DNA of 64,000 bases from an uncultured Acidobacteriota bacterium (GTDB lineage: Bacteria; Acidobacteriota; Vicinamibacteria; Vicinamibacterales; UBA8438): assembly GCA_913043225.1 (NCBI GenBank), contig CAJWLU010000004.1:67243-131242 (forward strand), given 5' to 3'. The notes beneath the pieces were generated by a model that did no database searches, was not told the DNA's origin, and saw only the letters and a list, made by a program, of their open reading frames with translations. Numbering within the stretch: position 1 is the stretch's first letter; the number at the start of each line of letters is the position of its first letter. The translations under genes were made by a program, and so were the position numbers. Below, one piece after another: positions 2,101-49,483 of the stretch.

Positions 2101-2665
2101 CCAGTCCAGCCCAGTAATAGGTGGACAACCCCAGGGTCAGAGTAAGGGCTTCTTCGACCTCATCTCCCTTGCTGAGGATGACCTCCTCGATCAGGATGAA
2201 CTCCGGCGCCGTTTCCACCGCATAGATAAACCGTCGTATGTCTTCGTACTCGCCGGCCAGCATCATCGTCGTACGAAGCTGCGCAAGCAGGCTCTCCCTC
2301 TCCTTTTCGGGCACACTGCTCGAACGCTCCAGCACAAGATCACTCTCTTCAGCGAGCCGATCGAGAAATGGCGAAAGGATTAGCCGCGCGCCTGCCAGAT
2401 CCCTAGGGATAACCTCTTGATAAAATCTCTCCAACTCATTGTCAGCCAATGACTTGTTGTTTATTGCCGTTGTCGCTTCACTAAACGCGGTCCGCACCTG
2501 CTCTATCTGTGCGTCCGCGGTGGCCATACGTGCCTCAGATTGAGACACCTTGGCCAACCATGGGTTGATCGCGAAGGCATAGAGGACTACATCTACCACT
2601 AAGATCGCACCCACCACGGTGACAAATGTTCGCTTTTCAGCCAGGATCCGGTTGAGCAGCGTCAT
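2087..2665 (-). CDS. PilO/GspM-like inner-membrane assembly protein
   Basis: 192 aa. One N-terminal TM helix (FVTVVGAILVVDVVLYAFAI), then a coiled-coil, then an alpha/beta C-terminal domain. ATGA overlap with the upstream PilN-like gene, and its position in the operon fits. Confidence 0.6.
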   Translation of the reverse strand: MTLLNRILAEKRTFVTVVGAILVVDVVLYAFAINPWLAKVSQSEARMATADAQIEQVRTAFSEATTAINNKSLADNELERFYQEVIPRDLAGARLILSPFLDRLAEESDLVLERSSSVPEKERESLLAQLRTTMMLAGEYEDIRRFIYAVETAPEFILIEEVILSKGDEVEEALTLTLGLSTYYWAGLDAES

Positions 2666-3348
2666 CTCGGCTCCTCATCGGCCGCGGCTGCCTCCGCAGT
2701 CGGAATCGCCTCATCTGTCGCATCGACCGATTCGTCTGTCTCCAGAGAAGCGTCGTTCTCCTCGGAGTCCGCCTCCTCCCCGACCAGTCCAAGCGCCGGC
2801 GTCTGCAGATAACGGCCTCGAAGCACGGCCCGATACATCCCGTCCTCTGTCAGTTCCGCCTGCCGGTTCAGCACTCCGGTAAAATCGCCCGAAGCCTCAA
2901 GCTTGTCGATGAAGCCGCTGATGTCGTCGAGCCGGCGCCCCAGCACCCCCATGGTGACCTCGATCCGCTCCGGCGATATATCCGGTTGCACTTGCGTCAG
3001 CATGACGTCTGGGGGAAGCGTGGTCTCGATACGGTTGAAGAAATCGGTCCAGGAGAACACTCGCTGATCGATCAAAGCGTTGGCCTCCCGGGCGGCAGCC
3101 GCCACCTGCTTAAGCGCTTCCGGCTTCACCGCCTGTTCAATCTGGGCTGTCTGGGTGCTGAGCTGGGCGGTCTCAGCCTCGGCCGTCTCGGCGCGAGAGA
3201 CGAGCTCGGTATTCCGTCGGGACAGGTCCGTGATCTCGACGATCTCCAATCCCAGCACGGCCAGGCCTAGCACTGCCACCAGGCCGAGACCCAGATACAC
3301 GGCGCGCTCGTTGTAGAAGGGACGCGTGGCGAGATTGGTACGAAGCAT
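2662..3348 (-). CDS. PilN-like fimbrial assembly protein with an acidic C-terminal tail
   Basis: Internal ATG at 3348 gives MLRTNLATRPFYNERAVYLGLGLVAVLGLAVL.. (PilN-type N-terminus plus TM plus coiled-coil). The longer track ORF (to 3975) overlaps the PilM-like gene and is Arg-rich shadow sequence. Confidence 0.65.
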   Translation of the reverse strand: MLRTNLATRPFYNERAVYLGLGLVAVLGLAVLGLEIVEITDLSRRNTELVSRAETAEAETAQLSTQTAQIEQAVKPEALKQVAAAAREANALIDQRVFSWTDFFNRIETTLPPDVMLTQVQPDISPERIEVTMGVLGRRLDDISGFIDKLEASGDFTGVLNRQAELTEDGMYRAVLRGRYLQTPALGLVGEEADSEENDASLETDESVDATDEAIPTAEAAAADEEPR

Positions 3349-3353
3349 GGGAC

Positions 3354-4322
3354 CTATGCTGCTGTTTCGGTCGACGAGCGCTCCCGCAACAGGAGTCCCA
3401 CCGGCGCGGCTAGCAGATCGGGCGAAACACCCTCGGCCCCGGCGCCCGAAAGCGCCAGCTCCGCACCGATGGCCTGGACCGATACGCCTAACCGGCTTTC
3501 GAGCGTGACGCGCAGAACGTCGGCCTCCTCCGGGCTTGTCTCGACCAGGCCGACCACTAGCAGCACACGCGAGAAACCGGCGCCGCCAAGACGATCCTCG
3601 TGGTACATCGTGGTCTGGTGTACCAGATCCACGAGGTTGCCGTCTCCCTCGAAGGAGCGGTTCCGGAACAGGATCAACTGGCCATGTCGGACCACGGCAA
3701 TGGTGCTGTAGCTGTGAGCCACGTGGACCAGCAGCCAGTCCCCTTCGCTCATCGTCCGGCCGGCTAGGACGCCATTGATCAGGCTGAAGCTCGAGAGATC
3801 CACAACCCCGGCGTGCACTCCAGCAGCGGAGCAGACCGACTCGTATTCCTCGACTATGTCGCGGCGCATCAACGACACCACGTACTCCCTTCCGCCGCCT
3901 TCGAGCGCGCGTCCCTGAGAGTACGTTACCTGCGCATCCTCCACCCGAAAGGGCGCGGTCTTGCGCGCCTGCCATCGAACGAGTTCCTTCAAGTCTGCGC
4001 TCCGGCTCGGAATCTGCTCGAAGCTGGTCAGCGACACCTTCGCCGCGCTGTCCGGCACCACCAGCGCCAGGCGGTTCGGCGACCCAGGCAGCGCCTCGAG
4101 CACGTTACGCACCGCCGCTTCGACGGCCGCGCGGTCTCCGAGATTTGAGGCATTCGCCGACGCTATCAGGGCACCCTCGGGCAACGGCGCCGTGGACACT
4201 GCAGTGACCTCTCGCGCGCCCCGTCCCAGCGCAACCCCGGTCACCCGGTCGGTGGCAATCTGCAGGCTGACCCCGGCTGGACCCGGAGCAAGTAGACGGC
4301 GAAGCCATGCACCTCTGGCCAT
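3354..4322 (-). CDS. PilM-like actin-fold assembly ATPase
   Basis: 322 aa with PilM-like layout (LALVVPDSAAKVSL..; LVHVAHSYSTIAVV..G.LILFRN). It sits directly upstream of the PilN/PilO-like genes. Confidence 0.7.
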   Translation of the reverse strand: MARGAWLRRLLAPGPAGVSLQIATDRVTGVALGRGAREVTAVSTAPLPEGALIASANASNLGDRAAVEAAVRNVLEALPGSPNRLALVVPDSAAKVSLTSFEQIPSRSADLKELVRWQARKTAPFRVEDAQVTYSQGRALEGGGREYVVSLMRRDIVEEYESVCSAAGVHAGVVDLSSFSLINGVLAGRTMSEGDWLLVHVAHSYSTIAVVRHGQLILFRNRSFEGDGNLVDLVHQTTMYHEDRLGGAGFSRVLLVVGLVETSPEEADVLRVTLESRLGVSVQAIGAELALSGAGAEGVSPDLLAAPVGLLLRERSSTETAA

Positions 4323-4341
4323 GATCCTTCCTTAGAGGAGG

Positions 4342-6003
4342 TCACTTGACGAAGGTAACCTTGTTGATCTCGCGAATGGTGGTGAACCCCGACAGAAGCT
4401 TCTCGACCGCCGAGTCGCGCAGGAAGCGCATACCGTCGGCCCGAATCGCCTGCTTGACCTCAGAGGCCGGAGCCTTGGCTAGAATCATCTCCCTGAGTTC
4501 GTCGGTCAGGTCGAGCAGCTCACAGAGCGCCGTGCGCCCCCGGTAACCGGTGCCGCCGCACTCGATACATCCGGTCCCCTCATAGAATTGATGGGTGGTC
4601 GCCAGAGCAGTATCCAACCCCGACTCTTCGAGCTGCTGCTCGCTAACCGTCGTCGGCCGGCGGCACTCGGTGCAGATCATGCGGACCAGGCGTTGCGCCA
4701 TGACGCAATTCAGTGACGAAACGAACTGATACGCCTCCACACCCATGTTCAGGAACCGCCCCAGCACGTCGAGCACGTTGTTTGCGTGGACGGTCGTAAA
4801 GACCAAGTGTCCGGTCAGCGCGGACTGAATCGCGATCTGGGCGGTTTCCGAGTCACGAATCTCCCCCACCATGATCTTGTCTGGGTCGTGACGCAAAATC
4901 GACCGCAGGCCCCGGGCGAAGGTCAGTCCCTTTCGCTCGTTGATCGGAATCTGAGTAATCCCATGCAGCTGATACTCAACCGGATCCTCAATCGTGACGA
5001 TCTTGTCTTCCGGCGAGTGAATCTCTGACAGCGCCGCATACAAGGTCGTGGTCTTGCCACTCCCGGTCGGCCCGGTCACCAGCACCATCCCGTACGGCTC
5101 CATGATGGCGCGCCTGAACCGTTTCAGCTCAGACTCAGCGAATCCGAGGATGTCCAGGTTCAATTCCCGGAACTGCTCGCTGATCGTCTCTTTGTCCAGG
5201 ATTCGGATGACCGAGTCCTCGCCATGGACGGTTGGCATGACCGAGACACGAAAGTCGATGGTCTTCCCTGGCACCTTGACCTTGAAGCGTCCATCTTGCG
5301 GCACCCGTTTCTCGGCGATGTCGAGCTCGGCCATGACCTTGACGCGGGAGAGAATCGCACTGTGGAAGTGCTTGTCGACCGGCCGCATGGCCGACTGCAA
5401 CGTGCCGTCAATCCGATACTTGACGTAGACCGCATCGTCCTGCGTCTCTATGTGAATATCACTGGCCCTCCGTTGCAAGGCCGTATAGATCATCGAATCC
5501 ACGAGGCGAATCACTGGACTAATGTCGCTGGTTAGCCGCTCGACCGTCAGGTGCTCCTCGCCCGCTTCATCCTCCTGCAGAATCTGGAGCTCGAAGCTCT
5601 CTTGCGCCTCATCGAGAACGCGCTGCGAGCCTTCGCTCTTCTTGAGAATCGACTCGATGGCCGAGGACGTGCCCACTGTGACCCGGATCGGCATCCCGAG
5701 CAACAGCGCCAGCTCGTCGATCATAGGCAGATCGGTTGGATCCGACACCACGATGACTAGGGTCTGCCCGTCCTTCCGGTGCGGCACGAACCCGTAGCGC
5801 AGCATCAAATCGGCTGGGATCGACCTGAACAGCTCCGCGTCGATGCGGAACTTCTCCATGTCGACGAACTCTAGCCGATACCGCTCGGCCAGCTGCTGGC
5901 CTCGTGCCAACTCTGCGACATGATCGACGGCCTCCGGTTCACCGCCGATGTACAGCTCCTCGGTGGTCCCGGGCTCGATCTCGGCCTGTGTCTCGTCTGT
6001 CAT
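4342..6003 (-). CDS. gspE: GspE/PilB-family secretion ATPase
   Basis: 553 aa. T2SSE N-terminal domain, Walker A GPTGSGKTTT, Asp/His boxes, and a tetracysteine CTEC..CIECGG zinc motif. Confidence 0.95.
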   Translation of the reverse strand: MTDETQAEIEPGTTEELYIGGEPEAVDHVAELARGQQLAERYRLEFVDMEKFRIDAELFRSIPADLMLRYGFVPHRKDGQTLVIVVSDPTDLPMIDELALLLGMPIRVTVGTSSAIESILKKSEGSQRVLDEAQESFELQILQEDEAGEEHLTVERLTSDISPVIRLVDSMIYTALQRRASDIHIETQDDAVYVKYRIDGTLQSAMRPVDKHFHSAILSRVKVMAELDIAEKRVPQDGRFKVKVPGKTIDFRVSVMPTVHGEDSVIRILDKETISEQFRELNLDILGFAESELKRFRRAIMEPYGMVLVTGPTGSGKTTTLYAALSEIHSPEDKIVTIEDPVEYQLHGITQIPINERKGLTFARGLRSILRHDPDKIMVGEIRDSETAQIAIQSALTGHLVFTTVHANNVLDVLGRFLNMGVEAYQFVSSLNCVMAQRLVRMICTECRRPTTVSEQQLEESGLDTALATTHQFYEGTGCIECGGTGYRGRTALCELLDLTDELREMILAKAPASEVKQAIRADGMRFLRDSAVEKLLSGFTTIREINKVTFVK

Positions 6004-7208
6004 GCGAGCACCGATCCCATCTGCAACAACGGCATATAAAGAGCAATGAGGAGGCCGGCGATGACGACTCCCATCACCACGAGCAACGCCGGCTCAATGA
6101 TCGTCACGAAACGCCCGAGCTGAGTGTCGATCTCCTCGTCGAAAAAGTCGGCCACGCTGATCAGCATCTCGCGGAGCGAGCCAGTCGATTCTCCGACCTC
6201 GACCATCTTGATGGCAACTTCGGGGAAGACCTTCCGTTCAGCCAGCGCCGACGCCAACGCCTCACCCTCCCGGACCCGCTGCCCCACCAGTGTGAGCTGA
6301 TCGGCGAAAAAGCGGTTACCGAGCGAGCGTGACGCGACATCGATGGCATTGACCAACGGAATGCCGCCTCCCAGCAACGTGGCCAAAGTCCGCGCCAGCT
6401 GAGAGGTTGCGAAGCGCGCCGCGATCTTTCCGACCGCCGGCACCCGCAAGATCAGACGGTCTAACCCCGTCGCCCGGCCCGACTGCTTGAACCAGTACCA
6501 AGTGCCTCCCACCACACCGATCACACCCAGAAATACCACCAAGAAATAGGCCCGGAAGAACGCGGAGACAGCTACGATCAGACGGGTCATAATCGGAAGC
6601 TCCGCCTCGAAACTCAGGTAGAATCCCTCGAACTCTGGGACCACACGCAGGACTATGATCGCGACGACGATCAGGGCAAGACAAAGCAGGATCGCCGGAT
6701 AGACGAGCGCCGAGAGCGTCTTCCGCTTGACCGCGCTAACAACCTTCACGTGGTCGATGTACCTGCGAATGACCTCCTCAAGTCCTCCGCTCTTCTCCCC
6801 AGCCATGAGCGAGGCCGTGTAGACGCCCGGGATCGCCTCACCCTGCGCCTCAAACGCCTCCGACAGCGCCGCCCCCGCGCGGACGCGATCGTGCACGTCA
6901 TTTAGAGTTCGCTTGAATCCAGGATCGTCGACCCGCTGGCGCAGGATGTCCAGCGACTGGACCAGGGGCAGACCGGCCTTGAGTAGAGTTGCCAGTTCCT
7001 GATTGAAGACCAGAAACTCCCGTGTCTTGATCCGCCGGTGTCTCTCCCACGAGAGCACGGGAACACTGAAACCGCCGCGCCGCTGTAGCGAAAGGATGTA
7101 CATCCCCTTCGCTTCCAGTTCCTGACGAAGCTGCGCCTCGCTTTCCGAGACGAACACCTCCTCAACAACCTCTCCGGTCTCGGTGCCAAGCCTGCAGCGA
7201 AACTCCAT
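6000..7208 (-). CDS. gspF: GspF/PilC-family inner-membrane platform protein
   Basis: Two T2SSF repeats (LATLLKAGLPLVQSL.. and LATLLGGGIPLVNAI..) and three TM segments. I prefer the ATG at 7208 (MEFRCRLG..). The track start at 7247 is a TTG. ATGA overlap with gspE. Confidence 0.9.
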   Translation of the reverse strand: MEFRCRLGTETGEVVEEVFVSESEAQLRQELEAKGMYILSLQRRGGFSVPVLSWERHRRIKTREFLVFNQELATLLKAGLPLVQSLDILRQRVDDPGFKRTLNDVHDRVRAGAALSEAFEAQGEAIPGVYTASLMAGEKSGGLEEVIRRYIDHVKVVSAVKRKTLSALVYPAILLCLALIVVAIIVLRVVPEFEGFYLSFEAELPIMTRLIVAVSAFFRAYFLVVFLGVIGVVGGTWYWFKQSGRATGLDRLILRVPAVGKIAARFATSQLARTLATLLGGGIPLVNAIDVASRSLGNRFFADQLTLVGQRVREGEALASALAERKVFPEVAIKMVEVGESTGSLREMLISVADFFDEEIDTQLGRFVTIIEPALLVVMGVVIAGLLIALYMPLLQMGSVLA

Positions 7209-7256
7209 GCTTTCCAGCGCGATCCGGGGTGACCCGCCGAGTCGCAAATTAAAGAC

Positions 7257-8266: not shown

Positions 8267-9169
8267 CTAATCTATCTCAAGGAAAGCGTAGAAGACCTGA
8301 ATCCCCAGCTCACGATTGTCGGCGTTGGCGCCATCGGTGATATCAGACGGCACGAACGCAGGGTCCACCGTCAACACCAGCGTCACCGTGTCGTCCTCGC
8401 CCATCGTCGCGGCCGACACAGGGAGCTCGTGAAAACTCGCGTCCGGTACCATCTCGAAGCTCGCAATCTCGGTCTCGCCAATGGCCAGCGTGACCAACTG
8501 TGGATCGTCGAGAAGTTCCGGACGCCCGTCGACCTCAAGATAGAGCGTGGAGTCTGTTCGCGGATTACGGAACGAGATAGTCGAGCGCCCCATCGTCCAT
8601 CGCCACTCGCGTTCCGAGTTTTCAGGCATCGACTCCACGTCGTGCCACCCGTCCTCAAAGAACAAGAATCCGCTTTCCGATTGCGGAGCCATCTCGAAGG
8701 TCCCCACCTGATACGCACGCTGACCTAGGTGGTCACCGCCGAGCGGCAGACGATCGCCCTGCGCCGGTGAGTAAAGCCCGAGCGCGACAGTGGCCTCACC
8801 GATGTAGGGGTACACCGGCGTGAAAAAGCGACGCCGGTAGGTGATCTCTCTCCCGGCCGTCCAGCTCGACAGCGGCTCTGGAGGATCGTGGTCGTCCGAG
8901 AACATCACGGCCCCGTCTGCATCGAGGAAGTGTACAAAGACGCGGTAGTCGTCCTCGAGCGCCGGCGCGGACGGCGCGAGCGTGAACCGATAGGTCATCT
9001 CGAGCGGCCCACCGAGCGGCACCCGATCGCGACCTAATGCCACGGCGGCGGTCCCGATCGGGGGTGCCGTATCGGCCAGGCCGCAAGCCGACAGCCCCGT
9101 CACGAGCGACAAAAAGGCCGACACACAGAGGAAGATCGAGCGTGGGGAACGCGTGATTCGCAACACCAT
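8267..9169 (-). CDS. Hypothetical lipoprotein
   Basis: 300 aa. Signal peptide plus lipobox (LVTGLSAC). No family that I can name with confidence. Confidence 0.5.
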   Translation of the reverse strand: MVLRITRSPRSIFLCVSAFLSLVTGLSACGLADTAPPIGTAAVALGRDRVPLGGPLEMTYRFTLAPSAPALEDDYRVFVHFLDADGAVMFSDDHDPPEPLSSWTAGREITYRRRFFTPVYPYIGEATVALGLYSPAQGDRLPLGGDHLGQRAYQVGTFEMAPQSESGFLFFEDGWHDVESMPENSEREWRWTMGRSTISFRNPRTDSTLYLEVDGRPELLDDPQLVTLAIGETEIASFEMVPDASFHELPVSAATMGEDDTVTLVLTVDPAFVPSDITDGANADNRELGIQVFYAFLEID

Positions 9170-9213
9170 CGTACGACGGCGGATTGTAGCTCTCTTTCGG
9201 CGGCGCCCGCAAG

Positions 9214-9242
9214 TTGCCGCATCTCCTGCAATATGTTACATT
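9214..9242 (+). promoter_or_regulatory. Sigma70-like promoter candidate for the BMC-H operon
   Basis: TTGCCG(9214-9219)-N17-TACATT(9237-9242) within a local AT-rich patch, about 115 nt upstream of the ATG at 9358. SD GGAGAAGGG precedes the start. Confidence 0.35.
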
Positions 9243-9357
9243 TCCGGCGCTTTCGTGCCCGCGGTGTACCCGAGGACGGGACCACGGCCACGTAGCCCCG
9301 GCCGCCCCGTGCCGCGGCCGCTAGTGCGGTCATATCGGCACACTTCGGAGAAGGGTT

Positions 9358-9636
9358 ATGTCGCTCGAAGCGCTCGGAATGGTGGAGACGAAGGGGCTGG
9401 TCGGCTCAATCGAGGCGGCCGACGCGATGGTGAAGGCGGCCAACGTTGTGCTGATCGGCAAGGAATACATCGGCGCCGGCTACGTAACCGTGTTCGTGCG
9501 CGGCGACGTGGGCGCGGTCAAGGCCTCGACCGACGCCGGCGCCGCCGCCGCCCGACGGGTCGGCGAGCTCGTCTCCGTACACGTCATCCCGCGTCCCCAC
9601 GGCGAGGTCGAGAAGATCCTGCCGCAGCCCAAGTAG
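9358..9636 (+). CDS. Bacterial microcompartment shell protein, BMC-H (PduA/EutM/CcmK family)
   Basis: 92 aa. [79 protein letters not shown] aligns position-for-position with PduA as I recall it. K26, N29 and R79 equivalents are present. Confidence 0.95.
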
Positions 9637-9679
9637 ACACCTAGGTTCCACCCGACGCTGATCGGCTTCGTCGAGAACC

Positions 9680-11437
9680 ATGGCCGACGCCGCCGCTTTC
9701 CCCGACCGCGACCTCGACTCCATCCGCGAAGCCAGAGAGCTCGCGCGACGGGCGCGAGCCGCCCAGACCCGGCTAGCCGACCTTAGCCAGGAACAGGTCG
9801 ACACGATCGTCGATGCCGTCGCCGCGGCGGCGCAGCGTGAGGTCAAGGCGTTCGCCCGTCTCGCCGTCGACGAGACCGGCTACGGCAACGAGGCGGACAA
9901 GATCAAGAAGAACCGCTTCGCCGCCGAGACCATCTACAACTTTATCCAGCCGATGCGAACTGTCGGCGTGATCAACCGGCGCGAATCCGAACGGATCATC
10001 GAGATCGCTGAACCGTTCGGGGTTGTAGCGGCGATCGTTCCCTCTACAAACCCGACATCTACGGCGATCTATAAGATCCTGGTCTGCCTGAAGGCGCGGT
10101 GTGCCGTCGTCCTCAGTCCCCACCCATCGGCCGCCCGCTCGATCATCCGGGTTGCCGACGTGCTCACCCGTGCCGCTCTCTCGGTGGGAGCGCCTGAGGG
10201 CGCAGTTAACTGCATGACCACCATCACGCAGGAAGGCACGCTGGAACTGATGCGGAGCCGCGAAGTGGCCTTGATTCTGGCCACGGGCGGTCTCGGACTG
10301 GTCCGCGCCGCCTACAGCGCGGGCAAACCAGCCTATGGCGTCGGTCCGGGCAACGCGCCGGCCTACATCGAACGCACCGCAGACGTTCCCAAAGCCGTCG
10401 CGGACATCATCACCGGGAAGACCTTCGATAATGGTGTCCTCTGCTCATCGGAAAACTCCGTAGTCGTAGATGAGGCGGTCGCTGGCGACGTTCGGCGGGC
10501 GTTCGAGAAACAAGGCGGGCGTTTCCTCAACCCACTGGAAGCGGCCAAGCTGGCCGAGGTGCTCGTGACACCGCAGCGACTGCCGAATCCGGAACTAGTC
10601 GGTAAGTCGGCTATCGAGATCGCCGCCCGCGTCGGAATCGAGATCACCGGGGACACACGGGTGCTCATCGCCACGCTGACGGGCGTGGGCCGCGACCACC
10701 CGCTATCGATGGAGAAGCTCTGCCCGGTGCTCTCCTTCTACGAGGTCTCGGATTGGCGAGCCGCCGGTGCGCGCTGCAAGGAGATTCTGGCCTACGGCGG
10801 CATGGGTCACACCATGTCGATTCACTCGGGCGACGAGCGGATCATCCTGGAGTTCGGTCTCCAAGAGCCCGCTTTCAGGATCGTGGTGAACAGCCCGACG
10901 ACCCTCGGGGCAATCGGCATGACCACCGGCCTTGATCCGTCGATGACACTCGGCTGCGGCGGCTGGGGGGGCAATATAACGTCCGACAACGTCACGCCCA
11001 GGCACCTACTGAACGTCAAGCGGCTCGCATACGAGACTCGGTCGGCGCCGCGACCGAGTGCAACCGTCGCCGGCGGCCCCGCGCTCCCCCTGCAACAGGC
11101 GCCGGACCGACCAGTAACCCACGGCGTGGACCCGGCGGTTCTGAACGAACGCATCGAGTTGTTTCTCGCCTCGCGCGGCATCGCCAGCACTACGCCCGCG
11201 CCACTGGAGGACCAGGCGCCCACGCTGCCACCCGCGGCGCCGCCGACGGCACCCACCTCGGCCGCCCCCCTTCCTCCAGCCGCTACGCCAATGGACTTCG
11301 TCTGCGAGGACGATGTCCGCCAGGCGCTACGGGAGAACCGGCAAATTCTCGTCAGCGCGGCAACGATCATCACTCCGGCCGCCCGCGATCTCGGGGAGGC
11401 GCAGCGGGTGTTCGTTCACGCATCAACTCCTCGCTAG
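9680..11437 (+). CDS. CoA-acylating aldehyde dehydrogenase (EutE/PduP/AdhE-N type) with a ~130-aa C-terminal extension
   Basis: 585 aa. [20 protein letters not shown], and catalytic Cys in [16 protein letters not shown]. The core ends near residue 455. Then come a P/A-rich linker, an amphipathic helix, a second linker and a ~47-aa terminal module. Confidence 0.9.
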
Positions 11438-11451
11438 CACCGAACCGACGC

Positions 11452-11919
11452 GTGGCCGACTTCGACCCCACCGCGCATCGCCTAGTCCCGACCCGCACCT
11501 TCGACGAGTTGGCGATCGGCGAGCAATTTCCGATCCCGAGCCGCACGGTGACCGACGGCCAATTCGCCGCGTTCCAGGTCGTCTCGGCCGACAATCATCC
11601 GGTGCACTACGACGCCGAGTATTGCCGCTCTCAAGGGTATTCCGCGCCGATCGCACATGGTTTTCAGGTGCTCTCGGCCACCGCTCCCGGCGCCGGGCTC
11701 TTTCCCCACGTGATGGGCCAGCGGCTCATGGGCTTCCTCGAACAGTCCTCCCGTTTTCTCGCTCCGGTCTATCTGGGCGACACGCTTTATCCCGAGCTCA
11801 CGATTACCGATCTAGTTCGACAGCGCACGACGGGCGTCGTCACCCTCCGCGCCACTGTGCACAACCAGCACCGCACCTTAGTCCTCGACGGCAGCCAAAA
11901 GTTCCTCGTCCGTCTGTAG
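11452..11919 (+). CDS. MaoC-like (R)-specific enoyl-CoA hydratase/dehydratase (hotdog fold)
   Basis: 155 aa, GTG start. Hydratase-2-like motif SADNHPVHYDAEYC..GYSAPIAHG. Starts 14 nt after the AldDh stop. Confidence 0.85.
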   Translation: MADFDPTAHRLVPTRTFDELAIGEQFPIPSRTVTDGQFAAFQVVSADNHPVHYDAEYCRSQGYSAPIAHGFQVLSATAPGAGLFPHVMGQRLMGFLEQSSRFLAPVYLGDTLYPELTITDLVRQRTTGVVTLRATVHNQHRTLVLDGSQKFLVRL

Positions 11920-12018
11920 CCGCCGCGCCCCACGAGGAGCGCGCAAGAAACTGCGGCTAGACCTATCTCGATACAGGCCGCGGCCTCGGGTCGACGGGTC
12001 AAGGTCTGGCCCGGCTCG

Positions 12019-12024
12019 TATAAT
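12019..12024 (+). promoter_or_regulatory. Perfect TATAAT -10 hexamer upstream of the AsnB-like operon (weak -35)
   Basis: TATAAT at 12019-12024. AGGAG at 12034-12038 lies 8 nt before the ATG at 12047. No good TTGACA-like hexamer at 17+/-1 nt. Confidence 0.3.
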
Positions 12025-12046
12025 GCGACGAACAGGAGACAGTCCC

Positions 12047-13390
12047 ATGGACCGCCAGATTCATCGAGTCATCGACCTCATCGACGATTCCGAGCAACTG
12101 ATTCAGAACATGGCGATCGCCGATGCCCGCGACCGGTTACGCGGCTCTCCTGACGGCATGCTCGGGATCCAGGGCTCGTTTGCGCTGACGGTCAGGGACC
12201 GCGAACAGGTGCTCATGGCGCGGAGCCTCGACCGACCAATGCGCTACTTCCTCGCAAAAGAGGTCGCCGGCCCGTTGCTCATCGTCGCGGAGCGAATCGA
12301 CGAAATCGCCGACCAATTACAGCGTCTGGGGTACGGCGACCAGTTCCATCCAACCTACACCCGGATGGTACCGGCACATCACGTGACCGCGCTCCGACTG
12401 ATCGGCTGCCCTGACCCGAACCCACAGCAGCGCCGGTTCTTTGCTCCACCCCGGGCCACGCTCGCTCCCGACCTCGATCAGATCGGCGATGCCTATATCG
12501 AGGCACTGACTGGCGAAGTCACGACCTGGCTGGACGCGCAAGACCCTAAGGCGCCACTCGGCGTCCTCTTTTCTGGCGGCATCGACAGCACGGCCGTGCT
12601 TGTAACGCTGTACCGCGCCTTGATTGACCGGGGCGACAGCGCCGCGCGACTCAAAGCCTTCACGCTGGCCGTCGACGGCCAAGGTTCCGACCTGGAACAG
12701 GCACGTCGTGCGCTCGCGCACCTCGAGCTCGGATTCCTGCACGAGCCGGTGGACGCTCCAAGTAACGCGCTGGATCCCCTCGAGGCGGTGGAGGTGATTG
12801 AGGACTACAAACCACTGGACGTCGAATGCGCCACCATGATGCTGGCGCTGCTCGGTGGCATCCGCGCCCGCTACCCCCACTGGCGTCTCATCGTTGACGG
12901 CGACGGCGGTGACGAAAACCTTAAGGACTACCCTCTCGAAGAAGACAACGAGTTGACGATCCGCAGCGTCGTATCGAACTCGATGCTCTACCAGGAAGGG
13001 TGGGGCGTCGACGCGCTCAAGCACTCCCTGACCTACTCCGGCGGTCTCTCGCGCGCCTGCGTCAGGGGCCGCGCGCCAGCCCGCCGCCTTGGCTTTCTCG
13101 GCTTCAGCCCCTTCACGCGCCCTGGTCTCGTGCGAGTGGCAGAAGCCATCCCGTTCGACGCGCTGACCAAAGGATCGACCGCGCGGCTCTACGCCCTGAA
13201 GGGCGAGATCGTCAGGCGCGGACTCGAGCATCGCTACGGGCGTTCCATGCCCATTTACCCCAAACGACGCTTTCAGCACGGCGCCGCGACGCCATCGACC
13301 TTTACCTCGAGATTCTCGGTACCCGAAGAGCGCTATCGCGCCCACTTCCAGACGCTTTGGGGAGCCCCCACCGGCGCACGCTCCATCTAA
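12047..13390 (+). CDS. Asparagine synthetase B / beta-lactam synthetase-like adenylating amidoligase lacking the N-terminal Cys nucleophile
   Basis: PP-loop LGVLFSGGIDSTAV. AsnB/beta-LS-like GSFALTVRDREQVLMARSLDRPMRYF lies only ~45 aa from the N-terminus. There is no Cys2, so the Ntn glutaminase domain is truncated. I prefer the start at 12047 (SD AGGAG) over the track ATG at 12023. Confidence 0.75.
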   Translation: MDRQIHRVIDLIDDSEQLIQNMAIADARDRLRGSPDGMLGIQGSFALTVRDREQVLMARSLDRPMRYFLAKEVAGPLLIVAERIDEIADQLQRLGYGDQFHPTYTRMVPAHHVTALRLIGCPDPNPQQRRFFAPPRATLAPDLDQIGDAYIEALTGEVTTWLDAQDPKAPLGVLFSGGIDSTAVLVTLYRALIDRGDSAARLKAFTLAVDGQGSDLEQARRALAHLELGFLHEPVDAPSNALDPLEAVEVIEDYKPLDVECATMMLALLGGIRARYPHWRLIVDGDGGDENLKDYPLEEDNELTIRSVVSNSMLYQEGWGVDALKHSLTYSGGLSRACVRGRAPARRLGFLGFSPFTRPGLVRVAEAIPFDALTKGSTARLYALKGEIVRRGLEHRYGRSMPIYPKRRFQHGAATPSTFTSRFSVPEERYRAHFQTLWGAPTGARSI

Positions 13391-13396
13391 TCCGGC

Positions 13397-14305
13397 ATGA
13401 CTGACCCACCAGGGCCGGTCCGGCCAAGACCTCCGGTGCGACTTGTTCACGAGTGGGAGCACAGCCCCGCCGGGACACGCTGTCAAGCCAGCACCGTCTT
13501 TCTTGTCGGTGCTCGGTGCCCCTTCGCCTGTGTGTTCTGCGACCTCGGGCAATACACCATCGGTGGCCCAACGCCTCCCGGGGCGATCACCGGACAGTTG
13601 GACTGGGCGCTGTCCCGCATCGTTCACCGGGATCGCATCAAGCTCTACAACGCCAGCAACTTCTTCGACGAGCGTGCAATCCCAGCCGCCGAGGACCGGG
13701 ACATCGTTGAACGCCTCCACCGGTTCGCTGAAGTGGTCGTGGAATGTCACCCGTGCCTCATTGGCGACCGATGCTTCGCCTTTGCCGATCGCCTTGCCGG
13801 GAGACTGCAGGTCGCGCTCGGCCTGGAGACCGCGCATCCGGAAACACTGGAGCGCCTGAACAAGGGCATGACACTCGCCGACTTCGACCGCGCCGCGGAA
13901 ACCCTCCGGCGGCACCGGATCGGTCTCAGAGCATTCGTACTCGTCGGTGCCCCGTTTCTGACAGCCTCGGAGCAGCACACCTGGACACTCCGGTCTGTCG
14001 ATCACGCGGTGGCGCAGGGCGCCGAACAGGTCTCTCTCATCCCGGTCCGTCCGCAGGCCGAACTCGACGGCCTGTCCTCCCAGGGCAAATGGCTCCAGCC
14101 CAGCTTCGCCCGGTTCGAGTCCGTGGTCGAGTCGGCGGTGGACAGCCACGGCCGATTGGTCCAGGCAGACCTGTGGGATCTGGAACGGTTGTCGACCTGC
14201 GCGGTGTGTCTCCCTGCGCGCCGGAATCGCCTCGACGCGATGAACCGAGACGGGCGGATACACCCGGCGGTCGGGTGCTCGCGGTGCGAGAGGGTAGCCT
14301 CGTGA
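13397..14305 (+). CDS. Radical SAM protein (Elp3-type TIM barrel; resembles the TIGR01210/RaSEA-like group by recollection)
   Basis: 302 aa. CxxxCxxC = C41-P-F-A-C45-V-F-C48 (nt 13517-13540). IKLYNASNFFD, GLETAHPETLERLNKG. Starts 6 nt after the AsnB-like stop. Confidence 0.85.
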   Translation: MTDPPGPVRPRPPVRLVHEWEHSPAGTRCQASTVFLVGARCPFACVFCDLGQYTIGGPTPPGAITGQLDWALSRIVHRDRIKLYNASNFFDERAIPAAEDRDIVERLHRFAEVVVECHPCLIGDRCFAFADRLAGRLQVALGLETAHPETLERLNKGMTLADFDRAAETLRRHRIGLRAFVLVGAPFLTASEQHTWTLRSVDHAVAQGAEQVSLIPVRPQAELDGLSSQGKWLQPSFARFESVVESAVDSHGRLVQADLWDLERLSTCAVCLPARRNRLDAMNRDGRIHPAVGCSRCERVAS

Positions 14306-15831
14306 GCTCCGTCGACCTGGTGGTGGTCGGCTCTGGATTCGCCGGTTCGATCCTGGCCCGTCTGGTGGCGCTATCCGGCCGTCAGGTGCTCCTCCTGGAA
14401 CGAGACACACATCCTCGGTTCGCCCTCGGAGAGTCATCGACGCCCCTCGCCGCCCTCTGCCTTGAACGGCTGGCCGGCCGCCACGGCCAAGAGGACCTCG
14501 CCGCACTCGCCTCGTACGGGCGCTGGCGCCAGGCATTGCCAGCCCTCCGCTGTGGACTCAAGCGCGGATTCACCTTCTACCGGCAGCGGCCCGACGTCTC
14601 GTTCTCGAGCTCCGACAGCGAGTCCCGCCTCCTCGTGGCGGCCAGCCCGGACGACGAGGTCGCCGACTGCCACTGGATGCGCGCCGACGTCGACAAGGCG
14701 CTGGTAGACCGTGCGATTGACGCCGGCGTCCACTTTAAGGACCGGGCCGAGGTAATAGGTATCGATCGCCGCGCGAGCCTGATGGCCGTGGACGTGCAGA
14801 CGCCCAAGGGTCGCGAGACGATCGGCGCGCGGTTCGTGGTAGACGGCACGGGCGGAGGACCGCTGGCCCAGGTGCTTGGCGCCGGCCGGGGCCCATCGCT
14901 GCCATTCTCGAGTCACTTGATCTACGCGCACCTCGACGGCGTCGCGGAGTTCCAGGCCGCCGCCGCACTGCCCGATGGCCCGTATCCAGATGACCAGGCC
15001 GCCGTACATCATCTTCTCGATGAGGGATGGATCTATGCACTGCGGTTCGACAGCGGCCGCCTTAGCGCGGGCCTCCTCCTAGAGAATGCGCCGACGAGCA
15101 CCTCGCCCGAAGACACCTGGCGGGCCACGCTCTCCCGCTATCCAACGTTGAGCGCGGCGTTCGCGCGAGCCCGACCCTACGGACCGGGTTTCCGGGCGGC
15201 CGGACCGCTCCAGCGGAGGCGACAGTATGCCGCCGGACCGGGCTGGGCGCTGCTCCCCCACAGCTATGCCTTCTTTGATCCATTCTTTTCAACCGGTCTT
15301 GCCTGGAGCCTACTCGGGGTTGAGCGGCTAGCCGATGCGCTGTGCGGTCCGGAACGTGAAACCGCACTTGGCCGGTACGCTGCGCTGCTCGCCGACGAGG
15401 CCGATCAGCAAGCCGCGCTGATCGCCGCGGCCTATAGCGCGAGGCGGGACATGGCACTGTTCCGGCCGCTCACATTTTTGTACTTCGCCTGTGTCAGCTA
15501 TGCGGAAATGCGGCTGCGGCTTGGCCTCGTACCGAATGACAACGCCGCGGCCTGGCGCGGATTCCTCGGCGCTGGGCAGCCTCCCTGGCCATCTGTCTTC
15601 GCCGAAGCACGAACGCGCATCGAGCACGCGCGCGACGCCGCCGACGCCGCGTCCTTTAAAAAGTGGGTGCAGGCGGTCATCGATCCCTATAACCTCATCG
15701 GCCTCGGGGAAGACCCGTCGCACCTCTACGGCGTCCATCTTGACCGGCTTAGGGCCAGCCACGCCCGCCTGGGCCTCTCCCCCGCCGAACTAAAGGCTCG
15801 GCTCCCTCGGCTCCGGGGCGGCCAGCCATGA
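14302..15831 (+). CDS. FAD-dependent oxidoreductase, flavin-halogenase/monooxygenase-like
   Basis: The GTG at 14302 overlaps the radical-SAM TGA (GTGA). Dinucleotide fold DLVVVGSGFAGS..LLLE, GESSTP, and FFDPFFSTGLAWS (the GD-type motif as in halogenase-like flavoproteins). A WxWxIP motif is not present (GWIYALRF). The track ORF start at 13744 is an overlap artefact. Confidence 0.75.
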   Translation: MSSVDLVVVGSGFAGSILARLVALSGRQVLLLERDTHPRFALGESSTPLAALCLERLAGRHGQEDLAALASYGRWRQALPALRCGLKRGFTFYRQRPDVSFSSSDSESRLLVAASPDDEVADCHWMRADVDKALVDRAIDAGVHFKDRAEVIGIDRRASLMAVDVQTPKGRETIGARFVVDGTGGGPLAQVLGAGRGPSLPFSSHLIYAHLDGVAEFQAAAALPDGPYPDDQAAVHHLLDEGWIYALRFDSGRLSAGLLLENAPTSTSPEDTWRATLSRYPTLSAAFARARPYGPGFRAAGPLQRRRQYAAGPGWALLPHSYAFFDPFFSTGLAWSLLGVERLADALCGPERETALGRYAALLADEADQQAALIAAAYSARRDMALFRPLTFLYFACVSYAEMRLRLGLVPNDNAAAWRGFLGAGQPPWPSVFAEARTRIEHARDAADAASFKKWVQAVIDPYNLIGLGEDPSHLYGVHLDRLRASHARLGLSPAELKARLPRLRGGQP

Positions 15832-43377: not shown

Positions 43378-45180
43378 ATGACCGTTCTCCCTCAACAGCA
43401 CGGCGCCAGCTTTCTGCTTGAAACAGTCGGCCCCGAGGATGTCGTCTGCCCCGAGGACATGGGCGACACCGAACGCCTGCTCGTCCAATCCATCAAGGAG
43501 TTCGCAGAGCAGGAGGTATCGCCGCTACTCGACGAGGTCGATGCGCGGAACATCGACGTGATCCGCCCGCTGTTCAAAAAGGCAGCCGAGTTAGGCATCT
43601 TCGCGGCCGAGGTGCCAGAGGCCTTCGGCGGACTTGGCCTTAGCGTCCTTGCGATGGCTGGCATGAGCGAGTGCCGGTCCTATCTGGGCGGCTTGTCATC
43701 GACGGTTTTCGCCCACCAGGGCATCGGAACCCTTCCGCTGATCAACTTCGGCACCAAGGACCAAATAGACCGCTATCTCGAGGGTTGCATGACCGGCGAG
43801 CTAATGGCCGCCTTCGCCCTGACCGAACCAGCCTCTGGCTCGGACGCGATGAACATCACTACCAGCGCGGTGCTCAACGCAGAAGGGACGCACTACATCG
43901 TTAACGGATCCAAGCAGTGGATCACCAATGCGGGCTGGGCCGACCTGTTCATCCTCTTCGCTAAAGTCGACGGCACGGCTTTCTCGGCTTTTCTCCTCGA
44001 ACGGGACAGCCCGGGACTCTCGGTCGGAGGACACGAGAAGCTCCTTGGCCTGCAGGGCTCTTCCGTGTGCGCCCTGCAGCTCGACGACGTCGCTATCCCG
44101 GTAGGCAACCTGCTTGGCGATGTAGGCAAAGGCCACAAGGTGGCCATGTGCACGCTCAACCTGGGCCGCATGAAGATGTCAGCCAACTGCGCGGGCACCT
44201 CGAAAAAGATCCTCGCGACAACCACGCAGTACGCCACGGAACGGCGGCAGTTCGGCCAGCCGATCGCGGACTTCGGGCTGATTAAGCGCAAGCTGGCCGA
44301 CATGGCCGCTCGCGCCTACAGCGCAGAATCGGTCGCCTATCGCACGGCGGGCCTAGTCTACACGGCAGCCGAATCGGCACAGTCGGACGACGACAACGCG
44401 CTTGACCTTAAGCTCAAAACCCTGGCCGAATTTTCGATGGAATGCGCAATGGCCAAGGTCATCGGGTCGGAGACCTACAGCGAATTAGCAGACGAGGCGT
44501 TGCAGGTGTATGGCGGAAACGGCTACAGCGAGGAGTACCCCGCCGCCAGATGGTATCGCGACTCCCGTATCACCCGCATTTACGAAGGCACGAGCGAAAT
44601 CTGCCGGCTGAGCATCGCAAAGACGATGTTGAAACGTACCGAGCGTGGGCTCCTGCCGTGGCGTGAGACGGTCAGCAGGTTTGGGTCGTTCAGGTCGGTC
44701 AGCATGCCCACCACTGCCACGGCCACTCGGACCCTGGAGTCGATGGAGGCACATCTACCAGGTTTCAAACAGATCTTCTTCTTCACGCTAGGGCAAGTCT
44801 GGGAGAACCTGGAGAGCGAGGTGCTGCTGGCCCCCGCGAATCAGCAGTATCTCTCGAGCCTGGCGGACATCGCGATCGAGACCTATCGAGCCGAAAGCAC
44901 AGTTCTCCGGGTGCTGAAGCTAGCTGGCTCACGCTCAACCGACGTGACGCTCCAGACCGCGCTCGCCAGCCTGACATTACATTCGGCCGCCGACCGCATT
45001 CAGCGGGAGGTAACAGAGGTAATCACGGCGCTGTCTGACGACTCTCCATTGGACGCGAGCCAATCTCTCGAGGACGCCCTGACCTGGGTGCGAAGGACGC
45101 TCCCCACCCCAGAGGGTCTCATTCAAACCCGGGCCCTGGTCGCCCAGGAATTGGTCACGCGCAACGGCGCCCTACCCTAG
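43378..45180 (+). CDS. Long-form acyl-CoA dehydrogenase
   Basis: 600 aa. ALTEPASGSDA, the catalytic-base region YEGTSEI, and a C-terminal helical extension. Confidence 0.9.
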   Translation: MTVLPQQHGASFLLETVGPEDVVCPEDMGDTERLLVQSIKEFAEQEVSPLLDEVDARNIDVIRPLFKKAAELGIFAAEVPEAFGGLGLSVLAMAGMSECRSYLGGLSSTVFAHQGIGTLPLINFGTKDQIDRYLEGCMTGELMAAFALTEPASGSDAMNITTSAVLNAEGTHYIVNGSKQWITNAGWADLFILFAKVDGTAFSAFLLERDSPGLSVGGHEKLLGLQGSSVCALQLDDVAIPVGNLLGDVGKGHKVAMCTLNLGRMKMSANCAGTSKKILATTTQYATERRQFGQPIADFGLIKRKLADMAARAYSAESVAYRTAGLVYTAAESAQSDDDNALDLKLKTLAEFSMECAMAKVIGSETYSELADEALQVYGGNGYSEEYPAARWYRDSRITRIYEGTSEICRLSIAKTMLKRTERGLLPWRETVSRFGSFRSVSMPTTATATRTLESMEAHLPGFKQIFFFTLGQVWENLESEVLLAPANQQYLSSLADIAIETYRAESTVLRVLKLAGSRSTDVTLQTALASLTLHSAADRIQREVTEVITALSDDSPLDASQSLEDALTWVRRTLPTPEGLIQTRALVAQELVTRNGALP

Positions 45181-45236
45181 TGATTCCCTGGAGGCTTTGG
45201 CCCAAAGCCCACGTGGGACTCCTTCGGCTCGATAGC

Positions 45237-45251
45237 TGGCAATTGGTTGGC
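45237..45251 (+). promoter_or_regulatory. Weak sigma54-type -24/-12 candidate upstream of glnK-amtB
   Basis: TGGCAATTGGTTGGC. The GG-N10-GC spacing is satisfied, but -12 reads TGGC rather than TTGC. It lies ~190 nt upstream of glnK. Confidence 0.2.
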
Positions 45252-45333
45252 GGTCCCGTGACAAATGTCAGGGCTGCGCCATGCAGCCTCACGACTCACT
45301 CCCTTCGACAACTGCTCTGCCGCTGCTGTATAG

Positions 45334-45777
<444 letters not shown>

Positions 45778-45814
45778 CAGCACAGCGCTCCAGCAGAGGG
45801 GGAAGGAGACAATT

Positions 45815-47119
45815 ATGAGGCTAACACGGACCACCGGCGTGCCACTCTTCACCGCGGCCTTACTGTTCGGCGCACCATCGCTCGCCGCCGCCCAGGATGA
45901 ACTTAGCTCTGGCGACACCGCCTGGATGCTGACCTCCAGCGTGCTCGTACTGTTCATGACCATCCCAGGGCTATCACTCTTCTACGCGGGACTGGTCCGC
46001 ACCAAGAACGTGCTGTCGGTGATGATGCAGTGCTTCGCCATTACTTGCATGGTCACCATTCTGTGGACAGCCTACGTCTACGGACTGGCGTTCGGCGACG
46101 GCGGCAGCCTGAACAGCTTCATCGGTATGGGTAAATTCTTCCTGTCCGGAGTCGAGGTGGACACGGTATCTGGCACGATTCCCGAATCCGTGTTCCAGAT
46201 GTTCCAGTTAACCTTCGCGATCATCACCCCGGCCCTGATCGTCGGCGCGTTCGCCGAGCGGATGAAGTTCTCCGCAATGATGGTGTTTATGGCGCTGTGG
46301 GTCAGCGTAGTCTACGCACCGGTCGCCCACTGGGTTTGGGGCGGCGGCTTCCTTGCCGACTTGGGTCCCAACGGCGTCCTGGACTTCGCGGGCGGCACCG
46401 TCGTCCACATCAATGCTGGCATCGCAGCGCTCGTCCTTTGCATCATGCTGGGAAAACGACACGGGTACCCTGATGCCCCGATGTCCCCCAACAGTCTGGT
46501 GCTGACTGTAGTTGGCGCGTCGATGCTCTGGGTCGGCTGGTTTGGATTCAATGCCGGCAGTCAGCTCGCTGCCGACGGGGCGGCTGGGATGGCCATGGCG
46601 GTCACCCACATCTCCACTGCGATGGCCGGCTTCACCTGGATGATGATGGAGTGGGCCGGCCGCGGGAAACCGAGCGCTCTGGGTATCGCGACCGGGGCGG
46701 TCGCCGGCCTAGTCGCCATCACTCCCGCATCCGGCTTCGTAGGCCCGATCGGGGCCTTGGCTATCGGCCTGGCCTCAGGCATTCTCTGCTACTGGGGCGC
46801 CAACAGCCTTAAGCAGCGGCTCGGCTACGACGACTCGCTCGACGTGTTCGGCGTCCACGGCATCGGGGGCATCGTGGGGGCGATTCTGACCGGCGTGTTT
46901 GCATCGAGCGCGCTTGGTGGATCAATAGCCGACCTGAACATCGCCAACCAGGTCTTCTGGCAGACAGTCGGCGTGATCGTCACGTTGGCGTACTCCGGAA
47001 TCCTGACGGCCATCCTGGTCAAGATTGTCGACGCGACGATCGGGATACGGGTCACCGCCGAGGAGGAAAGCACGGGCCTCGATATCGCGCTCCACAACGA
47101 GCGCGGCTTCAACCTGTAG
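45815..47119 (+). CDS. amtB: Ammonium transporter
   Basis: ATG at 45815 after SD GGAAGGAG. Signal peptide. DTAWML.., DFAGGTVVHINAG, LDVFGVHGIGG. Confidence 0.95.
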   Translation: MRLTRTTGVPLFTAALLFGAPSLAAAQDELSSGDTAWMLTSSVLVLFMTIPGLSLFYAGLVRTKNVLSVMMQCFAITCMVTILWTAYVYGLAFGDGGSLNSFIGMGKFFLSGVEVDTVSGTIPESVFQMFQLTFAIITPALIVGAFAERMKFSAMMVFMALWVSVVYAPVAHWVWGGGFLADLGPNGVLDFAGGTVVHINAGIAALVLCIMLGKRHGYPDAPMSPNSLVLTVVGASMLWVGWFGFNAGSQLAADGAAGMAMAVTHISTAMAGFTWMMMEWAGRGKPSALGIATGAVAGLVAITPASGFVGPIGALAIGLASGILCYWGANSLKQRLGYDDSLDVFGVHGIGGIVGAILTGVFASSALGGSIADLNIANQVFWQTVGVIVTLAYSGILTAILVKIVDATIGIRVTAEEESTGLDIALHNERGFNL

Positions 47120-47158
47120 GCAGATGGGGCGCCGCGGCGACCGCGGCGCCCCATCTGC
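47120..47158. terminator. Perfect 18-bp-stem hairpin filling the whole gap between convergent stops (candidate bidirectional terminator, no U-tract)
   Basis: GCAGATGGGGCGCCGCGG-CGA-CCGCGGCGCCCCATCTGC. It is flanked by the amtB TAG (47117-47119) and the minus-strand TGA (47159-47161). Confidence 0.6.
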
Positions 47159-48235: not shown

Positions 48236-48274
48236 ACTCCCACTGCCGATTCAGATCCGACGAACACGGCTGAA

Positions 48275-49471: not shown

Positions 49472-49483
49472 CTACGCCCCCGG

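Follow-up and report, generated by a model that had tools for sequence, protein, structure and literature searches.

Does a single shell gene followed by an acylating aldehyde dehydrogenase and a hydratase make up a new, minimal microcompartment, or is it one part of a system that is already known? This question is raised by a stretch of 64,000 nucleotides (hereafter the window) from an uncultured Acidobacteriota bacterium (contig CAJWLU010000004.1), in which a gene for a hexameric shell protein of the bacterial microcompartment (BMC) type, BMC-H (9358 to 9636), is followed on the same strand (+) by genes for a coenzyme A (CoA)-acylating aldehyde dehydrogenase (AldDh; 9680 to 11437) and a MaoC-type hydratase (11452 to 11919). 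A sequence-only reading had left two possibilities: a satellite of a main locus elsewhere, or a reduced module in which MaoC performs enoyl/3-hydroxyacyl-CoA chemistry. The three co-oriented open reading frames (ORFs) that it described, their positions and the 43-nt and 14-nt gaps between them were borne out by an ORF check and by Pfam. We favor the satellite: with a probability of roughly 0.78, BMC-H and the tailed AldDh form a two-gene satellite module of an ACI-type metabolosome in a marine Vicinamibacterales-like lineage, and MaoC is incidental or at most accessory. The pair itself is a known kind of locus and not a new minimal system.

In the published catalogue of BMC loci, the ACI type is confined to Acidobacteria, chiefly their subdivisions 4 and 6 (Sutter et al. 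2021, Nat Commun 12:3809, PMC8217296). Its main locus encodes a class II aldolase (PF00596) with a C-terminal encapsulation peptide (EP), a hydroxyacid dehydrogenase (PF00389/PF02826), a triplet of pentamer (BMC-P) proteins, BMC-H and unknown proteins, and an aldolase-based sugar-phosphate pathway is proposed for it (PMC8217296). The ACI AldDh, which the catalogue places next to the MIC3 AldDh, is consistently encoded in a satellite locus and bears an EP near its C-terminus, followed by a domain of unknown function of about 50 aa; it is sometimes accompanied by a BMC-H, either H_fuchsia with standard motifs or H_royalpurple with PRPF (PMC8217296). The locus in the window shares these traits. 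It is acidobacterial, as are the named close homologs of both AldDh and BMC-H, all of which come from Acidobacteria/Vicinamibacterales. Its AldDh (PF00171, 1.1e-26) lies apart from any BMC-P in the window and in the Pfam-annotated flanks, and the enzyme continues past its catalytic domain into a helix (residues 485 to 498) between disordered linkers and then a folded domain (residues 536 to 585). The satellite possibility thus fits, as the tailed AldDh and BMC-H match the description of the ACI satellite and the pair is conserved across Acidobacteria. By the same comparison, the conserved core already belongs to a named locus type; what the window contributes is a marine representative of a microcompartment type on record since 2021.

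The conservation of the pair was seen in a genome-collection scan seeded with BMC-H, which gave at least about 33 acidobacterial loci; the loci kept were satellites, plus Firmicutes and other loci (all labeled L below). Each sampled acidobacterial locus with enough flanking sequence had BMC-H followed by an AldDh that aligned through residue ~578-585 and was positive with a hidden Markov model (HMM) of the tail. The pair and the tail domain were therefore present together in at least about 30 acidobacterial loci, assigned to Vicinamibacterales, Pyrinomonadaceae, Bryobacterales and Terriglobia-like lineages, and the loci that also share synteny come from Vicinamibacterales and other Acidobacteriota metagenome-assembled genomes (MAGs). 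Look-ups seeded with AldDh (homologs of 69-73% identity) found the order BMC-H, AldDh in three of three cases. One BMC-H variant occurred in ten places, all with BMC-H, AldDh and ComM, and with pilus genes, an SLT gene and a gene for a 300-aa unknown protein on the opposite side of the divergent promoter region. The sequence seen in the window recurs on several metagenome contigs of marine (Tara Oceans) origin and in MAG GCA_002722915.1. The satellites of Pyrinomonadaceae are larger (L019 12439-16227, also L010, L020, L022, L026 and L030): in the L019-type order, AldDh is followed by a BMC-P, an ACT-domain protein with an EP-like N-terminal extension, a zinc-ribbon membrane protein, a UPF0210/DUF711-like protein and a second BMC-H. 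As both H and P are present, such satellites would count as a main locus under the catalogue rule.

The claim that the AldDh is of the BMC type also held. The catalytic domain (residues 1 to 455 of 585; 9680 to 11044) is closest among NCBIfam models to TIGR02518, acetylating acetaldehyde dehydrogenase, with 574 bits over residues 9 to 454. This score falls slightly short of the equivalog cut-off of 620 bits, and acetaldehyde may thus not be the substrate. The closest solved relatives are PDB entries 5j78 (1e-136) and 3k9d (7e-135), with AdhE behind at 1e-107, and the active-site motif FDNGxxCxSE, with Cys255, is invariant in the AldDh alignment. In pairwise comparisons the AldDh is 44-49% identical to its counterparts in BMC loci of Anaerolineae and Clostridia, and about 30% identical to enzymes that resemble PduP/EutE. 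Because the TIGR02518 alignment begins at residue 9, the enzyme is predicted to have no N-terminal EP.

Many homologs match this AldDh over its full length and through the tail (66-94% identity, 99-100% coverage). The tail is ordered as a Pro/Ala-rich linker (residues 456 to 484), a helix (485 to 498; 11132 to 11173), a second such linker (499 to 535) and the folded domain (536 to 585). In an AlphaFold2 (AF2) model the helix stands alone, with a predicted local distance difference test score (pLDDT) of 75-87 and low-confidence linkers on either side, and F495, L496 and R499 are invariant in the tail alignment. A hydrophobic-moment scan of the tail, at a threshold that we chose ourselves, flagged nothing; the assignment of this helix as an EP therefore rests on the AF2 model, the conservation and the catalogue description. 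From Vicinamibacterales to Pyrinomonadaceae, both the putative EP helix and the folded domain are conserved.

The new point of our analysis concerns this folded domain (11285 to 11437, stop codon included), which by sequence comparison is a homolog of the H1/H2 region at the N-terminus of EutQ. Pfam, a PDB sequence search and Foldseek gave nothing meaningful for it, the PDB sequence matches being designed repeat proteins. It has the invariant motif DFVxExDVRxA...I...TIxTPxARD...F, with D545, R547, T565, P566 and R569 among the invariant residues, and AF2 predicted a beta-alpha-beta-beta-alpha-beta fold with a pLDDT of 92. An HMM built from 106 AldDh tails was searched against the six-frame ORFs of the BMC loci fetched. 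It matched the N-termini of EutQ-like cupins from Clostridia and Anaerolineae (L066, L067, L075, L082 and L065; E 4e-4 to 2e-3), the C-terminus of a PduL (L036 5202-6224), the C-termini of proteins of about 250 aa (L029 13312-14085, L033 11096-11845 and L070 12650-13399), and three copies of the domain in one Leptolinea protein (L078 2815-3570). When the ACI tails were aligned with six EutQ N-termini (EutQ residues ~3-47), hhalign gave a probability of 97.1% and an E-value of 6.7e-11 over 44 columns. In a library of 1.84 billion representative sequences searched for other architectures of the domain, the best 150 of 672 matches were all C-terminal fragments of the same AldDh. It should be noted that the copies in L036, L029, L033, L070 and L078 sit inside BMC loci of other phyla; they are about 45 aa long, read D(V/I)R…IITP(L/S)A(R/K)D and have no Pfam model.

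In Salmonella, residues 9 to 41 of EutQ (H1/H2) bind the shell (EutM/EutL) while H3/H4 binds the EPs of the cargo, and when H1/H2 is deleted EutQ stays with the cargo, which is detached from the shells (PMC12487888, Sci Adv 2025). The "domain of unknown function" of the ACI AldDh can now be annotated as a putative homolog of this shell-tethering segment. We consider it more likely than the stand-alone scaffold discussed below that the domain of about 50 aa is a portable shell anchor, used on AldDh, PduL, EutQ-type cupins and other proteins across many BMC types, which would amount to a second cargo-attachment system beside EPs.

The adjoining shell protein is a typical hexamer of 92 aa (PF00936, 3.8e-28), with an IGAG pore loop and a canonical edge motif that reads PRPH in the sequence and not PRPF. 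It is almost a EutM equivalog in NCBIfam (NF012018, 130 bits against a cut-off of 133). It shares 90% identity or more with at least 120 protein clusters, the named ones being from Acidobacteria/Vicinamibacterales. Its GC content at third codon positions (GC3) is 0.90, against ~0.78 in the adjoining genes; this is the strongest codon bias of the region and is consistent with high expression.

Upstream of BMC-H, a block at 9211 to 9244 (+), AGTTGCCGCATCTCCTGCAATATGTTACATT, is conserved in at least eight Vicinamibacterales-like loci. In the alignment of eight upstream regions, GTTG-N12-CTGCAATATGTTA (9213 to 9238) is invariant, while the remaining intergenic DNA has diverged. The element reads as a -35-like TTGCCG (9214 to 9219), a 17-nt spacer, an extended -10 TGT and a -10-like TACATT (9237 to 9242), of which the T, A and final T are retained in all aligned loci. 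The spacer holds the invariant core CTGCAATATGT, and the spacer core GCAATATG is perfectly conserved. The window has a single exact copy of the motif, and related loci have it upstream of BMC-H only, at a distance from the start codon that varies from 26 to 201 nt. A consensus scan for sigma-70 sites found no promoter in this region; the element was missed because only 8 of its 12 hexamer positions match. Of the AT-rich sigma70-like promoter that had been proposed here, the sigma70-like part is thus made plausible by the TTGCCG-17-TGT-TACATT footprint of the eight loci; the AT-richness did not hold, as the 188-nt intergenic region is 65% GC and only a 20-nt patch (40% GC) is AT-rich. The element is likely an extended -10 promoter, and the invariant spacer may double as an operator or regulator site. 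A sigma-54 reading was set aside, as the -24 GG is by eye not conserved among the loci. No Rfam family was found in 8900 to 12200, and a conserved riboswitch is unlikely because the leader length varies so much among relatives.

If the pair is a satellite, the rest of the organelle should be encoded elsewhere, and the search for further BMC genes agreed with the earlier observation that the window holds no other. With BMC-H as a query, tblastn recovered only BMC-H itself in the 64 kb. No BMC-P was found with two tblastn queries (best E 0.4-1.1), which pick up pentamers across phyla at 1e-10 to 1e-20. PduL, class II aldolase and the tandem shell protein BMC-T were absent from the Pfam gene lists (window ~12-57 kb, ~9 kb upstream and ~5 kb downstream), which contained housekeeping genes (pilus genes, SecA, IMPDH, the glycine-cleavage system, cytochromes and similar), and BMC-H and BMC-P were likewise absent from the ~14 kb of added flank. 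The canonical core partners PduL/Pta, alcohol dehydrogenase and BMC-P were found neither in the window nor in the flanks, as is expected of a satellite locus.

The third gene does not seem to belong to the module. MaoC is a single hot-dog protein of 155 aa with a GTG start (PF01575, 1.6e-15), and its nearest PDB entries are 1q6w, PaaZ and PhaJ (best E 4e-13). Asp47 and His52 can be read in a hydratase-2-like motif, SADNHPVH, which the 1q6w alignment covers, and the protein is a predicted (R)-specific enoyl-CoA hydratase. With 14 nt between the genes and no terminator predicted there, it is probably co-transcribed with AldDh. An arrangement with MaoC after AldDh was seen only in the clade of the window (L001-4, L086 and L087; AldDh identity 82% or higher). 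When metagenomes were scanned with MaoC as the seed, 80 loci came up, and just the two nearest show this gene order (L086, MaoC 97% and AldDh 94% identical; L087, 85% and 82%); the other 78 orthologs (55-67% identity) had no BMC-H or AldDh within 8 kb, and the recurrent neighbors of these orthologs were a CaiB-type CoA transferase and beta-oxidation genes. MaoC aligned end to end with them in tblastn (residues 1 to 154) and therefore lacks a targeting extension. MaoC was also absent from all other acidobacterial BMC-H/AldDh loci examined (~30). The gene after AldDh in L005, L169, L170 and L173-L182 was ComM/Mg-chelatase-like, and L169 shares with the window the genes that come next, namely AsnS-like, radical-SAM, FAD-oxidoreductase, M23 and SecA; with ComM at the same place and the same genes downstream in relatives, MaoC fills the ComM slot in the window clade. 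MaoC is a lineage-specific neighbor and stands outside the conserved module.

These results speak against the reduced module of the sequence-only reading: the triad is not kept in relatives, MaoC occupies a ComM slot without an extension of its own, and the 78 other orthologs are never beside BMC genes. That reading was right to place MaoC outside the standard set of metabolosome components, as neither MaoC nor PF01575 appears anywhere in the catalogue's supplementary tables (Sutter et al. 2021). The MaoC gene should consequently not serve to infer the ACI substrate.

Two origins for MaoC were considered and set aside. Its GC and GC3 are native, so composition gives no support to a recent horizontal acquisition. 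Nor does MaoC appear to be part of the downstream cluster of AsnS-like, radical-SAM and FAD-dependent genes, as this cluster is without MaoC in L169 and MaoC orthologs occur elsewhere without the cluster. In L174 and L178 (~8500-12200), the ComM gene after AldDh is truncated and followed by insertion sequence (IS) elements (DDE_Tnp_IS240, rve), so that the slot after AldDh looks like a rearrangement hotspot, which fits a ComM-to-MaoC replacement. About 35 kb downstream of the module (43378 to 50305), the window encodes an acyl-CoA dehydrogenase, a family III CoA transferase and a crotonase-type enoyl-CoA hydratase, the sort of setting where MaoC orthologs of other genomes are found.

How might the module work? 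In the ACI satellite reading, AldDh would be the CoA-acylating core enzyme, forming an acyl-CoA from an aldehyde that is produced within the compartment; this aldehyde would be lactaldehyde-like or glycolaldehyde-like if the catalogue's aldolase-based pathway is right. The enzyme would be delivered and held by its tail, through the linker, the amphipathic encapsulation helix, the second linker and the EutQ-like domain. The latter would dock AldDh on the inner face of BMC-H tiles, possibly of the very hexamer encoded directly upstream, which would explain why both genes are inherited together under one conserved promoter. The pentamers, further hexamers, aldolase and hydroxyacid dehydrogenase that a closed, functional organelle requires would then be encoded by a main locus in another part of the genome. 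We infer this main locus, as well as the substrate of AldDh and the shell docking. MaoC would have replaced ComM after AldDh in this sub-lineage only and would at most act on the acyl-CoA leaving the compartment; it is probably cytosolic, since it has no targeting extension. If the domain does bind hexamers, it would offer a testable handle on the assembly of ACI organelles and a compact natural tag for loading engineered shells.

Several points weigh against this reading. An ACI main locus was not reached in this genome or in any relative, and the ~83 kb around the module are free of pentamers. Among the matches listed (120), a search with the BMC-P of the Pyrinomonadaceae satellite L019 gave only its own blue-clade orthologs, and among those listed (120) for a protein search with BMC-H there were only satellite copies of at least 90% identity. 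The ACI assignment rests on a match to the catalogue's description. Shell docking by the C-terminal domain is predicted from homology to a distant protein, and E. coli EutQ alone matches the tail HMM weakly (residues 8 to 38, 9.9 bits). Finally, MaoC probably shares a transcript with AldDh, which makes a functional link possible. The last point favors a normal ACI organelle to which MaoC is functionally coupled, the product of AldDh being a 2-enoyl-CoA or 3-hydroxyacyl-CoA that MaoC interconverts outside the shell. The catalytic Asp47 and His52 are kept and relatives whose AldDh is as little as 82% identical still have the arrangement, but it is limited to one sub-lineage, and the partners of MaoC orthologs in other places are CaiB-type CoA transferases and beta-oxidation genes rather than BMC genes. 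Moreover, aldolase-derived aldehydes such as lactaldehyde and glycolaldehyde would yield 2-hydroxyacyl-CoAs, which are not MaoC substrates (hydratase 2 chemistry). We regard such a coupling as possible though doubtful.

The failure of BMC-P- and BMC-H-seeded searches to reach a main locus, together with the lack of BMC-P, BMC-T, PduL and aldolase in the window and its flanks, could also mean that there is no main locus. In such a stand-alone minimal system, sheets or tubes of BMC-H would scaffold the tail-anchored AldDh and, with MaoC, would make up a pentamer-less unit leading from aldehyde to acyl-CoA to hydroxyacyl-CoA. The co-orientation of the three closely spaced genes with no predicted terminator agrees with this, as does the conservation of MaoC within the clade, which equals that of AldDh (97% and 85% against 94% and 82%). 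However, a satellite is by definition distant from its main locus, so an absence within ~83 kb says little, and the same pair, tail, promoter footprint and flanking synteny recur across Acidobacteria, for which the catalogue has main loci elsewhere. The encapsulation peptide is kept, and MaoC is a recent local replacement of ComM with no targeting extension. We find this explanation quite improbable in its general form; it is unlikely as well, if a shade less so, in the specific form of a marine lineage without an ACI main locus, in which BMC-H, an AldDh anchored by the EutQ-like domain and a newly recruited MaoC would form a pentamer-less scaffold from aldehyde to hydroxyacyl-CoA. Least credible by far is an ordinary cytosolic acetylating acetaldehyde dehydrogenase next to a BMC-H that is a relic without organelle function. 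The catalytic domain is indeed also close to free AdhE-type enzymes, but its best matches are BMC-type AldDhs, BMC-H is strongly conserved with the highest codon bias of the region, and the helix and the folded domain of the tail have been maintained from Vicinamibacterales to Pyrinomonadaceae.

The module also has recurrent neighbors. Beside it, on the opposite strand (2662 to 7247), the window encodes a type IV pilus or type II secretion system (T2SS)-like cluster (PilM, MshE/T2SSE ATPase and T2SSF) and an SLT transglycosylase; in Pyrinomonadaceae (L011) the satellite is likewise flanked by these genes, which suggests that the linkage of pilus genes and satellite is old. Between this cluster and BMC-H, and divergent from the latter, lies the gene for a 300-aa protein with a lipoprotein-like N-terminus (…LVTGLSAC…) and without a Pfam or NCBIfam match (8267 to 9169, minus strand). 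It keeps its place in Vicinamibacterales loci and on a Ca. Sulfopaludibacter contig (37-59% identity), even when other flanking genes are rearranged (L006). Downstream of MaoC, at 12023 to 15831, are genes for an asparagine-synthase-like PP-loop protein, a radical-SAM protein and an FAD-dependent oxidoreductase, a cluster conserved in L169; the best match of the radical-SAM protein is archaeosine RaSEA (TIGR01210, 9e-19, below cut-off).

Compared with known systems, the locus is closest to the ACI satellite, with a standard-motif PRPH BMC-H adjoining AldDh and no recognizable signature enzyme. It differs in that AldDh is followed by MaoC, in its marine (Tara Oceans) rather than soil source, and in that the pairing of BMC-H and AldDh, occasional in the catalogue, is constant in the loci sampled here, a sample that is mostly BMC-H-seeded and thus biased. 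The TIGR02518/EUT2 enzymes (3k9d of Listeria and 5j78 of Geobacillus) resemble the catalytic domain end to end (E 1e-135) and share FDNGxxCxSE, but do not have the 130-aa C-terminal tail. The PVM/GRM5 metabolosomes, in which a class II aldolase yields lactaldehyde for an AldDh, follow the same pathway logic as that proposed for ACI, to which they are likened on account of the PF00596 aldolase in its main locus; this is an analogy only, as neither aldolase, phosphotransacylase (PTAC) nor alcohol dehydrogenase was seen in the window. MaoC has in common with PhaJ, characterized MaoC proteins and the C-terminal domain of PaaZ the single PF01575 hot-dog fold and the Asp-x4-His catalytic pair, with low identity to the characterized members; to our knowledge, no other MaoC is BMC-associated. 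The C-terminal domain of AldDh, finally, shares with EutQ H1/H2 the motif D(V/I)R.A....I.....IITP.AR(D/E), a predicted fold with two helices and a flexible linker that sets it apart from the rest of the protein. The domain is at the C-terminus of AldDh here and at the N-terminus of a cupin acetate kinase in EutQ, and AldDh bears an EP of its own, whereas EutQ instead has the EP-binding H3/H4 region.

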